Below, in pieces: positions 9,001 through 15,000 of a DNA stretch of 53,221 nucleotides (the stretch's first letter is position 1; every line of letters starts with the position of its first letter). The stretch is from a virus (lineage: Duplodnaviria > Heunggongvirae > Uroviricota > Caudoviricetes). The position numbers are program-made. The stretch lies in IMG/VR virus record IMGVR_UViG_646311923_000016; one strand, 5' to 3'.

Positions 9001-12000
9001 CTGATTAGGAAAACAGGAAAGGGGGTTAGTGAATGCTTTTGCTTGATCTCAGTTTCTGTATTAATATCCATTTTTTATAAGCGTCGACGGCCTCACGAAA
9101 CATCTTTTCATCGCCAATAAAAGTGGCGATAGTGAATTTAGTCTGGATAGCCATAAGTGTTTTATCCATTTTTTGGAACTCCTGGCTGATTAAGTATGTC
9201 GATAAGGCGTTTCCATCCGTCACGTAATTTACGGGTGATTCGCTCAAGTAAAGATTCGGAAGGGCAGCCAGCAACAGGCCACCCTGCAATGGCATATTGC
9301 ATGGTGTGCTCCTTATTTATACATAACGAAAAACGCCTCGAGTGAAGCGTTATTGGTATGCATATAAAAAGGCCCTCACACTGGAGGGCAAAGAAGATTT
9401 CCAATAATCAGAACAAGTCGGCTCCTGTTTAGTTACGAGCGACATTGCTCCGTGTATTCACTCGCTGGAATGAATACACAGTGCTTATTCGTACTAATAA
9501 AATACCCAATTTTCTGTTTCTTGGTTGTGTCCAAAGTTATATTCAATATCTGGTATTGATGTATCAATATTCTTCATCCCATCAACAAGAGTTGATACAA
9601 CAGCCAAATCTTGTTTGATTCTCATTAAATGGTATTTCTTCCGGCGCAATAAACTTTCAATGGCAAGTTTCTTCGTTGGGAATGCAAAAGATCTTTCTGC
9701 ATTTTTTGCTACTTTCTTAATTGCATATCTATTTCTCTTTTGTTTCCATTCCTGTAACCACTGATTTGGTGCTGGTTTAAAATTAACAATCCAATGCGCA
9801 GGAACCAACCATGCATAATGCTCTGTCTGATGAAAAGCTATATATTGAAGTGCGAATATTTTTATCCCATCTTCTTCAACTGTCGCCTGGAATCTCCAGA
9901 AAACAGGCATTCCATCATGTTCAGTTTCTGATTCAGGAAAAGGTACGCTCCATGATTTTGTCATATCTCACCTCAAATAAGTGGTTTGCTGCCTAATTTC
10001 ATTTTCTGGCGACCAACACAAGTCACCTCGCCGTCAGTTGTTTTGATTTCCGGTAGCCTGCCGCGTAAATGGCTACGTTTGGAAGACATACACCAGTTTC
10101 TGGTTGCTTATGTCCAAACTCATTCGCGTACACAATGGCCGCTCGCTCCAGATTGCGTCTGTATTCTTTCTGTTGCCAGATCACGTCCTGTGCCATGAAC
10201 TTAATTGGCTTAGCGTCTTCTATGCGCTCAGGCGTTTCGTGAGTACCTTTAGCCTGAATCTGCGCTCTGCTTAGAGTAGGGCGGTGTAATACTTCTGAAC
10301 TTATTGCTTCTTCGCGGGCCAGTACGCCGTTAGCTAATGCCTTTGCCTTTAAACGCTCACGACGACGAGAACGTGAATTGCCTTTGAACTGAGTTCTGCG
10401 TGTCATATAGACCTCCTGATGAACTTTGGTGGTGTGGTAGGTGGGAGACCCATTTCGACCTGTTTCGGCCTACTTCAATTCGGCAATAGTCCCGCAGGCC
10501 TCGCCGCTTTACGTGCGACATATTCCCGTCCATGAACCCTTCACCACACCCCAAAGTTCACTTTGGTTATTGCGCTTTGTCAGCGCCGTAGATTCATATT
10601 CGAATCGTTGTATATTCACCGCCCTGGTGAGTAATGCGTCCTGCTGACGACGATAATAATGAACCAATAGTTCGACATTATCAAGAACTATTGGTACGAA
10701 TTTTGGTGATTTATTAACTCTACGAAGTATGATTCTGATATATAAGGAAATTTATTTTTGAAAATGTGGCTGATGAAGGTTATGCGGCAGGGATCATAAC
10801 TGCATGGTTTAGCGAGTTACATCAATAAATACAATTGGTTATGTTTTTTAGGTGGGCGAACGTGAGGCAAAGAAAACCCGGCGCTGAGGCCGGGCTAGAT
10901 TTTAAAGTATTTATCTTTTAGAGATGTAGATGTAAAACTTTTCGCCTTTGAAAATTTTTTGTCATCAGAAGGGCTTATGAACTCATCTTTTTTGTAGGGA
11001 ACCGCTAATGCTGCATCACGTCTGCGAGGCAGCTTGCTTACTTCCTCGCGCTTTTTCATGATCAGTTATCCTTTAATAACCTATACAGTTTTGTAGGGGT
11101 ACATCCTGAGGATATTGTTAAGTTCGTAGCACGCCTTTTCCGCCCATCATCGTATAAACGAAAACCAGTAGTAGACGAATTTTCTGCGTCAAAAACTATA
11201 GACAGTATAGCGTCCCCAGACTTTTTTTGCCATTCGCATGTGCCGTTAGTTGGTTTCGTCATCTGTAGACGCCAGTCAAGAACGCCATCACTTATAGCTG
11301 AGAGATCGTTTAGTACATCTAGTACGGATTGATATCTTTCATTTGGATCTACATGAATGCATTTGTTCACTATTGTTATTAATTTTTTATGTATATGGGG
11401 AGGATACTCTTTTAATGGATAGCAGCCATTAATTATCGACTCTCTGAGTTGTTCAATCGTGCTAAATGCAGATCTTTCTCTTTCAAAATTATCATGTCCA
11501 ACACACATTCTATATATGGTTAATCCTGCCTGATATATGTCATATGTGAAATTATAATCATTTGTTGATAAAGAAAAATATTCCGGTGGCACATGAAAAT
11601 GATATCCAAACTCAGGCGCAGCTCTCGATTCCTCATTGACTAACTGAGATAATCCAAAGTCAGATAGCATGGCCTCATTTCTGTTTGATATCATAATGTT
11701 ATTAGGTTTTATATCAAAATGCATAAGACCTTTTGAGTGTATATGATAAAGTCCACTTAAAAATTGAATGGAATACCGTATTATCTCCCTGCTTGTAAGA
11801 TTATTTTTTTTCATTAATTGGTTTAGCGAACCATTATGATAAAATGGCATGGCTATATAGATATTGCTCTCACATTGAGCAGCATACTGAACTTGCACAA
11901 TATTTGGATGTGCATGTTTATAGAGAAGCCTTGCTTCATTAAAGTAGTCGTCGTGGTTAGTGTTTTCTTTTTTTTCTATTTCTTTAATCACCAAGTCATG

Positions 12001-15000
12001 AGCTAGGTGTCTGTCATGAGCCAGATATACTTTTGAAAAACAACCCTGTTCTTCTAGATCACTAATCCATTCGAATTCTACATCAGCTCTTTTGTATGGA
12101 GTTAGCATCCCCTTACCTCCGCAGATAGTGCAGCCAAAACAGCTTCATTTGTTTCAGTTGTAAAACCAGAATTATCGATTCCATTTATATTGCGGTGTGA
12201 CTTCAATATTTCTTTATACTCGATCTCTGTTAGGTTCAATGATGATTTCATGCCAGATTTTCTAATAGTGTAATATTTTCTTACATCACTGCTTGAAAAT
12301 GCTTCTTGAATAACAGCTTCTATATAAAGGCGGTCAATGCTAAGATTATCAGAGTTTGATTCAGTAACGCGTATGGCAGCTAATTCAACATTATATAAAT
12401 TAAGAATGTCGAGGATGTTATTTCTCACATACTTTAATTTTTCTGGTGTGTCTAAGGTCGAAGGTATTTTAATAACATCAACACATTTGAGTGCAGACTC
12501 ATTAGTGCAATATACAACAAAAGATGTAACTTTGGGCGCCGCTCTAACACCTAGTATTCTCATTTTTTATATCCTATTTTAGAATCAGGCCGCATCTCTG
12601 CGACCATCCATCATCCAAACGTCTCTTCACTCATCCGAAGAAGCAGCAATCCGGGTCAGCACGCACAAGCTCAAGCGCATCAGTCAGCGAAAGTTCAGTA
12701 CTGTACTGATGCCATTTCATATCCTTCCGCATCCAATAGATTTTCCATCTATCCAGAGAACGTATGTACTTGATTCTTGCTGATGGCAGGATGTTTGTTT
12801 CACCTGGATTGCCCTGCCACACGGGGCGCTGTTCGCCGATATCTATCGTTTGGTCATTGATGCTATAAACAATATCCAGTTCATTGCGGATATGTTCAGG
12901 CGGCCTTATGCTTTCAATGAATTGGTGAACTTCTTTTTTTACTGCTTGATATTCAAGGTCATTGAACGCCATCTATCCTCCTTACCCAAACGTCTCTTCA
13001 GGCCACTGGTTACCAGCTATGTGACGATGAAGTCACGAACTTTTCAGCCACTCCCTTGCCTCGATGTCATCCAGATGGCGAGATTGCTTCAGAATACCAG
13101 CTACATACTCCACCTTTGCTACTTGATGATAAGGCAACGTTATAGGCCTGTGATCCTGGTTAATGCTTGTAAATTGGTATTCTCCATCTCTGTCATAGCC
13201 AAGAACCTTAATCATGTTGTGTCCTTCAACGGTTCTGACAAACACCTCATCACCCGGGAATACTTTGGTGTTAGGCTCAATGAGTACATATTCTCCTGAT
13301 TTTATTCTGGGCCACATGCTGTCTCCTTTCACACGAAGACCAAAGGCATCTGGATCATCGCTATAAATTTTGAGCCACCCATCGCGCTCTTCGGTCATCT
13401 CGATGGCACCATCAACACCAAGAATTGCCTCACCAACCACGCGCACTAACCCTTTTTTTAATTTGCCAACAAATGAAAGAGTATCTTCATCATTCGCTCC
13501 ATTTAACGAAGTGCCGTGCTGAAGCCAAACAACATCAACGTTTAGAAATTTCGCAAGCGCATTCATTTTTTCCTGACGCGGTAAAGACTCAGCATTAAAC
13601 CATTTGCTAACGCCTTTGGACGAAAGAGAAAGGGCACGGGCTATAGCCATTCCCCTACCATGTTCATCAAGACCAGCTTCTTTACAGGCTTGCGCTAGCC
13701 GCTGGGCGAATTCTTTGCGCACTTTTTCATTCTGAACCATGAGTACGATACTAAAGCACTTGCAAAAACTTTCAGTTCAACCATAATACGTACTGAAAGT
13801 ACGAAAAAGGATATTCCTATGCAAAATCTTGATGAGCCGATTAAAGGTGTCGGCATCCCTGAAGTTGCGAAGGCTTGTGGAGTTAGCGAAAGGGCTGTCT
13901 ATAAGTGGCTCAAAAACGGCTTCCTCCCTAAGACTGAGTTTTTTGGGAAAACTAAATACGCATCAAAAATCGAAGAGATTTCTGGTGGCAAATATCAAGC
14001 AAGCGAAATGCTTGAAATAAGCAAAAAGAACCTTCTGGCTGCATAAGTAACACCGCTATTTTCACAATGGACATTCGTCCTACGTCGCTGACAAAGCGAG
14101 TCCCAATATATCTGACCAACTAAGGCCATATGCGTTTCCACGCATACCTTTCAACTAGCTATTCACTATTGGAAATCTTAAGAAATGGAACAAACAAGTT
14201 ACAGCAAACTATCACAGCGAGAAATTGATCGCGCTGAAACTGATTTACTCATCAACCTGTCAACGCTTACCCAGCGCGGTCTGGCAAAGATGATTGGCTG
14301 TCATGAATCGAAGATAAGCAGAACGGACTGGAGATTTATTGCTTCGGTCTTGTGTGCTTTCGGAATGGCATCAGACATCAGTCCGATTAGCAGGGCTTTT
14401 AAGTATGCGCTTGATGAAATCACAAAGAAAAAATCCCCGGTGGCCGCCGGGGACTCTAAGCAAATTGATATGCAATTCTGAGGGAATTACTGGATCAATC
14501 CACAGGAGTCATTATGACAAATACAGCAAAAATACTCAACTTCGGCAGAGGTAACTTTGCCGAACAGGAGCGTAATGTGGCAGATCTCGATGATGGTTAC
14601 GCCAGACTATCAAATATGCTGATTGAGGCTTATTCAGGCGCAGATCTGACCAAGCGACAGTTTAAAGTGCTGCTTGCCATTCTGCGTAAAACCTATGGGT
14701 GGAATAAACCAATGGACAGAATCACCGATTCTCAACTTAGCGAGATTACAAAGTTACCTGTCAAACGGTGCAATGAAGCCAAGTTAGAACTCGTCAGAAT
14801 GAATATTATCAAGCAGCAAGGCGGCATGTTTGGACCAAATAAAAACATCTCAGAATGGTGCATCCCTCAAAACGAGGGAGGTTCCCCTAAAATGAGGGAC
14901 ATCCCTCAAAACGAGGGAAAATCCCCTAAAACGAGGGATAAAACATCCCTCAAATTAGGGGATTGCTATCCCTCAAAACAGGGGGACACAAAAGACACTA

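Follow-up and report, generated by a model that had tools for sequence, protein, structure and literature searches.

The window analysed here is the whole 53,221-nucleotide sequence of IMG/VR record IMGVR_UViG_646311923_000016, a virus of the Caudoviricetes, and our subject is the set of accessory genes that lies between its cI repressor gene and the terminator tM. Four minus-strand open reading frames (ORFs) occupy this stretch, namely orf113 (a DUF3024 gene), orf153, the kinase gene stk and orf54. The last three form an indivisible evolutionary unit, found intact across bacterial phyla and viruses, whereas orf113 appears from its distribution to be an independently mobile gene that stands outside the kinase system. 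We think it probable that the whole cI–tM stretch is the accessory, lysogeny-expressed part of a 933W-type immunity operon, comprising an orf113 module and a three-gene kinase abortive-infection (Abi) system that works as a unit.

A sequence-only reading of the same DNA had grouped the genes differently, as a cassette of orf113, orf153 and kinase. Its pairing of orf153 with the kinase holds, but orf113 does not belong with them and orf54 had been overlooked, so that the conserved unit is instead orf153, kinase and orf54. The Stk locus itself is already known as an Abi kinase. What seems not to have been described is the strict conservation of the three-gene architecture across phyla, with its remodelled RuvC fold and microprotein, together with a hotspot marked by DUF3024; our literature search found no paper on a system of kinase, RuvC-fold protein and microprotein.

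Conservation of the orf153–stk–orf54 unit

Linkage of the three genes was surveyed in both directions. Scanning one genome per species with orf153 gave 39 loci, which span the alpha-, beta- and gamma-Proteobacteria, Bacteroidota, Firmicutes and Acidobacteriota. A Stk homologue (35–58% identity) lies directly downstream in every one of them, typically with an overlap of 1–8 nt, and is N-terminally disrupted in a single case. Starting from a kinase profile, 80 viral loci were collected (37–100% identity), three of which end at a contig edge; orf153 is directly upstream of the kinase in all 77 that could be tested. A basic ORF of 50–71 residues abuts or overlaps the kinase stop in nearly all loci. 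It is matched by a hidden Markov model (HMM) in 108 of 126, and hand inspection of remaining loci found it, with the same motifs, in 15 of 16, only locus L045 lacking it; in all, the kinase has such a follower in about 125 of 126 loci.

The unit travels between unrelated settings. The block from 12624 to 10869 of the window recurs at 97% identity in phages whose repressor is a different one and which lack orf113. In Klebsiella, Morganella and Terasakiella an orf153-like gene, a kinase of ~345 residues and a small ORF follow one another in that order, again with other repressors upstream and without DUF3024. The triad is found downstream of S24 CI repressors in Acinetobacter and Lampropedia, and of an XRE helix-turn-helix (HTH) protein in Haemophilus. 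It comes directly after a C5-methylase/AAA_5/LlaJI restriction system in Flavobacterium, after HsdM in a Pyrinomonadaceae metagenome-assembled genome, and after an OLD-family ATPase-TOPRIM protein in Sessilibacter; elsewhere it adjoins DUF2726 or integrases. These contexts are the signature of a mobile defence module.

The three genes have also diverged together. Pairwise identities of the kinase correlate with those of orf153 (r = 0.91) and of the microprotein (r = 0.79), although shared phylogeny inflates both values. Ratios of nonsynonymous to synonymous substitution (dN/dS) against locus L092 are 0.05 for orf153, 0.08 for stk and 0.20 for orf54, the last ranging over 0.20–0.32; all three genes are under purifying selection.

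The kinase

The gene stk (11062–12108, minus strand) encodes a protein of 348 residues, with a Hanks-type kinase domain at about residues 10–270 and a separate C-terminal domain at 280–348. The kinase assignment made from the sequence alone is borne out by Pfam (Pkinase, 2e-46; PF00069, 158.8 bits against a cut-off of 31.7, residues 21–260). Among 20–37 orthologues at 35–87% identity, K42, E58, H130/D132/K134/N137, D150-F-G152, P175-E176, D190 and R258 are invariant, as are Y169 of the activation loop and W279 and W293 of the C-terminal extension. Since all Hanks catalytic positions are invariant on alignment, the kinase is not mutated in its catalytic residues, and Stk is by sequence predicted to be a catalytically intact eukaryote-type kinase.

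In its AF2 (AlphaFold2) model, which has a mean predicted local distance difference test score (pLDDT) of 86, Stk has a standard bilobal kinase core; the closest Foldseek matches are CaMKII, PDK1 and AMPK (E ~1e-15, template-modelling score about 0.6–0.8). Residues 280–348 are modelled with higher confidence (pLDDT 93–95) as a four-strand β-meander plus a helix. The catalytic loop reads HFDIKPNN; it is of the non-RD kind (HFD), with a DIKPNN motif of Ser/Thr type, and Y169 falls in a low-confidence activation loop. The motifs of Stk thus look Ser/Thr-type, whereas PMC3681748, which cites Friedman 2011, names it a tyrosine kinase.

Kinases of the Stk clade form 543 clusters at E ≤ 1e-10, and the best 120 of these 543 are mostly 337–353 residues long. 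Likeness to catalogued defence kinases is confined to the kinase core: the PADLOC PD-T4-6 and mad6 models give 110–170 bits, as against 475 bits for the PHROG family to which Stk belongs, and the best PD-T4-6 match has an E-value of 1e-37 at 128 bits. Stk scores under every NCBIfam cut-off. Membership of the MADS MAD6 kinases was considered and rejected, the score of 122 bits comparing with an NCBIfam equivalog cut-off of 460 and the resemblance again being limited to the core.

Four viral loci (L089, L090, L093 and L095) and one from Pseudoalteromonas (L028) carry near-identical cassettes in which stk is apparently frameshifted or N-terminally disrupted, the kinase ORF starting 200–380 nt past orf153. 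These cassettes suggest occasional inactivation of the kinase.

Exclusion of phage HK97 by Stk, which the sequence-only reading had mentioned, is indeed published. According to papers that cite Friedman 2011, 933W Stk has little activity in uninfected cells (PMC3681748); it is made in the lysogen and HK97 infection activates it, with the result that this infection is aborted (PMC3681748, PMC6356687, PMC3564112). Co-transcription of 933W stk with cI is likewise mentioned in PMC3564112, citing Tyler 2004. RNA-seq of Phi24B shows cI, ST933Wp24, p23 and p22 (stk) shifting together (PMC10789677).

A rival view is that Stk is a stand-alone Abi kinase like PD-T4-6 or Stk2, with orf153 and orf54 as passengers or as genes of independent function that travel along. 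HK97 exclusion is credited in print to Stk (PMC3681748, PMC6356687), PD-T4-6 models match it at the E-value given above, and for the prototype of PD-T4-6 one cloned ORF is enough. We nevertheless judge this explanation unlikely. The synteny is strict in both directions and extends over at least four phyla, the genes overlap by 1–8 nt and diverge together, both partners are under purifying selection, and passenger genes would not stay linked over such phylogenetic distance. The PD-T4-6 matches, moreover, cover the kinase core at about 110–130 bits, while Stk has its own C-terminal domain and a characteristic length of 337–353 residues.

The orf153 protein

The first gene of the triad, orf153 (12102–12563, minus strand), encodes a protein with a RuvC/RNase H-like fold that lacks the canonical catalytic tetrad. 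At the level of sequence it stands apart. No Pfam family matches at E ≤ 0.01, and no NCBIfam or PADLOC model matches. Searches of PDB sequences with single sequences and profiles (phmmer, hmmsearch) returned for orf153 and orf113 chance matches only (MinE, ALIX and AvrPto, E 0.07–1.5), with no match of orf153 to RuvC. The family is small (454 clusters) and stays separate from canonical RuvC.

Residue conservation was assessed in 126 family members, made up of 125 representatives from a library of 1.84 billion proteins plus the protein of the window. A local profile–profile alignment (hhalign) of these 126 with four solved RuvC sequences, of which the E. coli reference is identical to 1HJR, extends over 143 columns with E = 0.002 and a probability of 13%. 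It pairs the RuvC tetrad D7, E66, D138 and D141 with R7, R65, E137 and E140 of orf153, and its register fits the fold topology, placing these positions at the end of β1, the end of β4 and in the last helix. Arginine occupies position 7 in 125 of the 126 members, position 65 is Arg or Lys in all 126, position 137 is variable, and position 140 is Glu or Asp in 123. Also near-invariant are R47, E68, R78, E82 and E87.

Loss of the first carboxylate in a nuclease of the RNase H fold is normally incompatible with two-metal catalysis. Because orf153 appears to have lost this residue, we regard it as a probable pseudo-nuclease. The same substitutions bear on the idea that orf153 is an active RuvC-type nuclease effector, cutting branched DNA of the phage or host, and that Stk is the kinase which activates or regulates it. 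An arginine in place of D7, a carboxylate essential in all nucleases of the RNase H fold, and a basic residue in place of E66, in practically the whole family, speak against it, as does the failure to match RuvC in Pfam at E ≤ 0.01 or among PDB sequences, and we consider it very unlikely.

Naming of orf153 in E. coli RefSeq and phage records is inconsistent; 'hypothetical protein', 'RuvC family protein', 'RuvC-like Holliday junction resolvase' and 'res: resolvase' are all used. The resolvase names are probably over-specific, since the catalytic residues are missing.

The orf54 microprotein

The third gene, orf54 (10895–11059, minus strand; ST933Wp21), encodes a basic microprotein of 54 residues with an isoelectric point of 10 that belongs to phrog_4063. 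Across the family it is recognisable by an N-terminal MK-basic stretch, an invariant Arg that is usually preceded by Ser or Thr, and an aromatic-hydrophobic C-terminus. It has no model in Pfam, NCBIfam or PADLOC.

A small basic protein translationally coupled to a potentially toxic kinase invites comparison with toxin–antitoxin (TA) systems, and the triad could be an addiction module of this kind, with the kinase as toxin and orf54 or orf153 as antitoxin, which stabilises prophages and islands and excludes phages as a secondary effect. The low activity of Stk in uninfected cells, reported in PMC3681748, would suit such a module, and TA-like cargo (HipA_2 and RmrA/PIN-like proteins) is housed in the same genomic slot. 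On the other side, activation by phage and abortive infection have been reported, the triad adjoins restriction–modification and OLD systems, and neither orf153 nor orf54 has an HTH or other typical antitoxin domain in Pfam or NCBIfam. On balance an addiction module seems highly improbable.

The orf113 gene and the cI-proximal slot

Lying directly behind cI, orf113 (12631–12972, minus strand) encodes a DUF3024 protein (PF11225, 2e-31; 108.9 bits against a cut-off of 24.9) that PADLOC lists as defence candidate PDC-S43 (5e-42). It was examined as a part of the kinase system and rejected as such; we treat it as a separate, facultative module. Of the 39 species-representative triad loci, 37 have no DUF3024, and cassettes of 97% identity without orf113 occur in E. 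coli and IMG/VR. Conversely, a DUF3024 profile gave 79 viral loci, in which the triad follows DUF3024 in 31 and other cargo in 48, including an NYN-domain protein, a ParA-like ATPase, an RmrA-like M78 peptidase, a HipA_2 kinase, a HATPase-like protein and several proteins of no known kind. Among complete E. coli genomes, 222 of 5426 (about 4%) contain at least 80% of the locus, and orf113 and the triad are found both together and each without the other.

What DUF3024 does keep is its upstream neighbour. In all ten distinct cases checked this is a CI repressor of the S24 type, one of which presumably resembles lambda cI, and the repressors represent at least ten immunity types. On this pattern the DUF3024 gene would seem to form the constant left-hand border of a hotspot for defence and TA cargo next to cI. 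It is also seen in tandem copies, and beside DinI paralogues and tail-fibre genes.

The junctions of orf113 bear repeated sequence. An exact 14-nt direct repeat, GAAGAGACGTTTGG, is present between the cI stop and the orf113 start (12986–12999, minus strand) and again after orf113 (12615–12628, minus strand), where the second copy marks the upstream boundary of the kinase cassette, homology with the orf113-less phages L081 and L083 starting at 12624. Many E. coli genomes have on its own the 49-nt stretch that follows the cI stop and surrounds the first copy, and motifs related to GAAGAGACGTTTGG precede orf153 in L081, L092 and the Erwinia locus L016. The second copy is followed, in the orf153 leader, by a conserved RNA/DNA hairpin, GGTCGCA-GAGA-TGCGGCC (12588–12605, minus strand), which forms part of the minimum free energy fold (z = -2.6) and shows compensatory changes in L081 (GGCTGC...GCAGCC) and L016. 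The repeats and hairpin may be junctions for module exchange, or an element for RNA processing or attenuation.

These data bear directly on the grouping first proposed, in which orf113, orf153 and the kinase constitute a Rex-like three-gene exclusion cassette with both upstream ORFs assisting the kinase. The genes do share a strand and an operon that tM closes; DUF3024 is directly 5′ of the triad in three diverged lineages, the 933W type, Erwinia L016 (60% identity) and a Proteus type (~40%), and is itself a PADLOC defence candidate. Its absence from nearly all triad loci and from the 97%-identical E. coli cassettes, and the prevalence of other cargo behind it, nevertheless largely refute such a cassette. 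The GC content of orf113 differs from that of the triad and the linker repeats lie on both its sides. The proposed cassette also leaves out orf54, and its analogy with Rex does not extend beyond position: no window protein at the locus matches a Rex Pfam family, and the maximum 19-residue hydropathy is ≤ 0.96 in all four accessory proteins, which therefore have no transmembrane segment. A RexAB-like membrane mechanism was accordingly rejected, all four being soluble by hydropathy, and a Rex-like cassette can be given hardly any probability.

Architecture of the operon

From ~10.6 to 14.2 kb the window is 100% identical to the Shiga toxin (Stx) phages JLK-2012 and 933W, and it represents a Stx phage of the 933W/JLK-2012 type. 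The coordinates and minus-strand orientation first given for orf113, orf153 and the kinase downstream of cI proved correct. Read along the minus strand, the order is cI, orf113, orf153, stk, orf54, the tM hairpin with its T-run, and then nutL and N. The operon, transcribed from pRM, opens with cI (13033–13740, minus strand), an HTH and S24-peptidase repressor (Pfam Peptidase_S24, 4e-16; HTH_3) annotated as cI in NC_000924, with pM and oR1–3 upstream. The accessory genes are its cI-distal part and end at tM, and to this extent the proposed equivalence of position with rexAB is sound.

The intrinsic terminator at the end of the operon, also noted from sequence alone, is annotated as tM in NC_000924. 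The element as a whole occupies 10866–10896 (minus strand), with a hairpin at 10875–10896 that has an 8-bp stem including six GC pairs and is followed by the T-run, TTTTCTTT. The terminator is the downstream boundary of the mobile cassette, homology with L081 stopping at 10869, and orf54 runs right up to it.

Spacing within the operon separates the triad from orf113. The two upstream ORFs had both been described as coupled, which is true of orf153, whose 7-nt overlap with stk (ATGCTAA) is followed at the other end of the kinase gene by a gap of 2 nt between the stk stop and the orf54 start, but not of orf113, which is 67 nt from orf153 across a gap that holds the linker repeat and the hairpin. 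Base composition divides the genes in the same way. The description of the cassette as AT-rich applies to orf153, stk and orf54 (34.8, 35.4 and 37.6% GC), but not to orf113 (44.7%), which is like cI (45.2%); the window as a whole is 50.4% GC. A promoter scan gave no evidence of an internal promoter, because sigma-70-like sites (10) are no commoner than in shuffled sequence (11.1).

Further along, between N and an ssb-like gene, a second AT-rich patch (~36–37% GC) contains a minus-strand ORF of 156 residues at 9494–9964 (phrog_1636, without a Pfam match), possibly another moron.

Proposed mechanism and its weight

In the reading that we favour, the operon tail would consist of two modules. The first is orf113, a DUF3024 gene placed habitually directly behind an S24-type CI and ahead of a variable cargo slot. 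The second, from 12624 to 10869, would be a self-contained three-gene kinase abortive-infection system, whose products, we infer, work as one unit. Stk would be the effector, with the invariant Tyr169 as a candidate site of autophosphorylation, and the pseudo-RuvC protein orf153 would serve, without catalysis, as a sensor or a scaffold. An orf153 dimer might, for instance, bind branched phage DNA or a phosphate ligand through its Arg-lined former metal site. Dimerisation of orf153 in the manner of RuvC could then bring kinases together for trans-autophosphorylation, perhaps at Y169. For orf54 a role as regulator of the kinase is envisaged, either as an inhibitor or pseudosubstrate or as an adaptor.

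Several points weigh against this. The literature found gives orf153 and orf54 no role by experiment and describes no function for orf113 either, in keeping with the remark in the sequence-only reading that the roles of the neighbouring ORFs are not established. Cloned alone, stk is said to exclude HK97, which would make its partners dispensable at least for that phage. Kinase defences that consist of a single gene do exist (Stk2; PD-T4-6, cloned alone as an ORF of 436 residues). The co-divergence correlations are, as indicated, inflated by common descent. The equivalence of R7 and R65 with D7 and E66 draws on an alignment of low probability together with fold topology, and the invariant acids E68, E82, E87 and E140 that the orf153 family keeps leave room for an unconventional catalytic site.

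A further-reaching version can be put forward tentatively, as a possibility to which we give less than even weight. The Stk clade would be an unrecognised cross-phylum three-component immune system in which a dead RuvC-fold protein, as a structure-specific sensor of nucleic acid or of a phospho-ligand, licenses the kinase, while the microprotein, as a pseudosubstrate, keeps it silent until a phage infects. DUF3024 would have a separate part in this version, as a factor associated with repressors and the marker of a defence hotspot next to cI in lambdoid prophages.

Stk is among the oldest examples of kinase-based abortive-infection defence, and it is carried by Shiga-toxin prophages. Should it prove to be the catalytic subunit of a three-protein machine, work on isolated stk may have overlooked how it is regulated and how wide its sensing range is, and the pipeline labels 'PD-T4-6', 'PDC-S43' and 'RuvC resolvase' would together misdescribe the locus. 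A dead RuvC fold beside a kinase would then be a new case in which immunity has turned a nuclease into a sensor by exaptation. The DUF3024/S24-repressor hotspot, for its part, offers a simple handle with which to mine new lysogeny-expressed defence cargo.

Comparison with known systems

The gene studied here is the same as 933W stk (Friedman et al. 2011; Tyler et al. 2004), to which it is 100% identical. In PMC3681748, PMC6356687 and PMC3564112 it is portrayed as a single kinase, and these papers do not describe an obligate RuvC-fold partner, a microprotein or cross-phylum conservation.

PD-T4-6 (Vassallo 2022) and Staphylococcus Stk2 (Depardieu 2016) are likewise Hanks-type kinases that give defence of the abortive-infection type. 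The PD-T4-6 prototype, RRM76169.1, is a protein of 436 residues encoded by 1311 nt and was cloned alone, whereas members of the Stk clade have 337–353 residues and a distinct C-terminal domain and, unlike the single-gene PD-T4-6, are flanked by orf153-like and microprotein genes. Compared with RuvC resolvases, both bacterial and that of phage bIL67, orf153 has ~15% identity and no match to the sequence family, and carries a conserved Arg and an Arg/Lys in place of the catalytic D7 and E66. Its gene is always coupled to the kinase, and not to ruvAB or to phage recombination genes.

With lambda RexA/RexB the locus has in common that accessory genes for exclusion follow cI on the pRM transcript, are closed off by a terminator and are expressed in the lysogen, with abortive infection as the outcome. 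It differs from them in having no homology and no membrane channel component, and in the effector chemistry of Stk, which would be phosphorylation. The hotspots of P2 and P4 prophages (Rousset 2022, PMC9122126) offer a parallel of another kind, a fixed position with interchangeable defence and TA cargo. The present slot, bounded by cI/DUF3024 on one side and tM/N on the other, differs in lying within the lambdoid immunity region and in having as its left flank a DUF3024 gene tied to S24 repressors.

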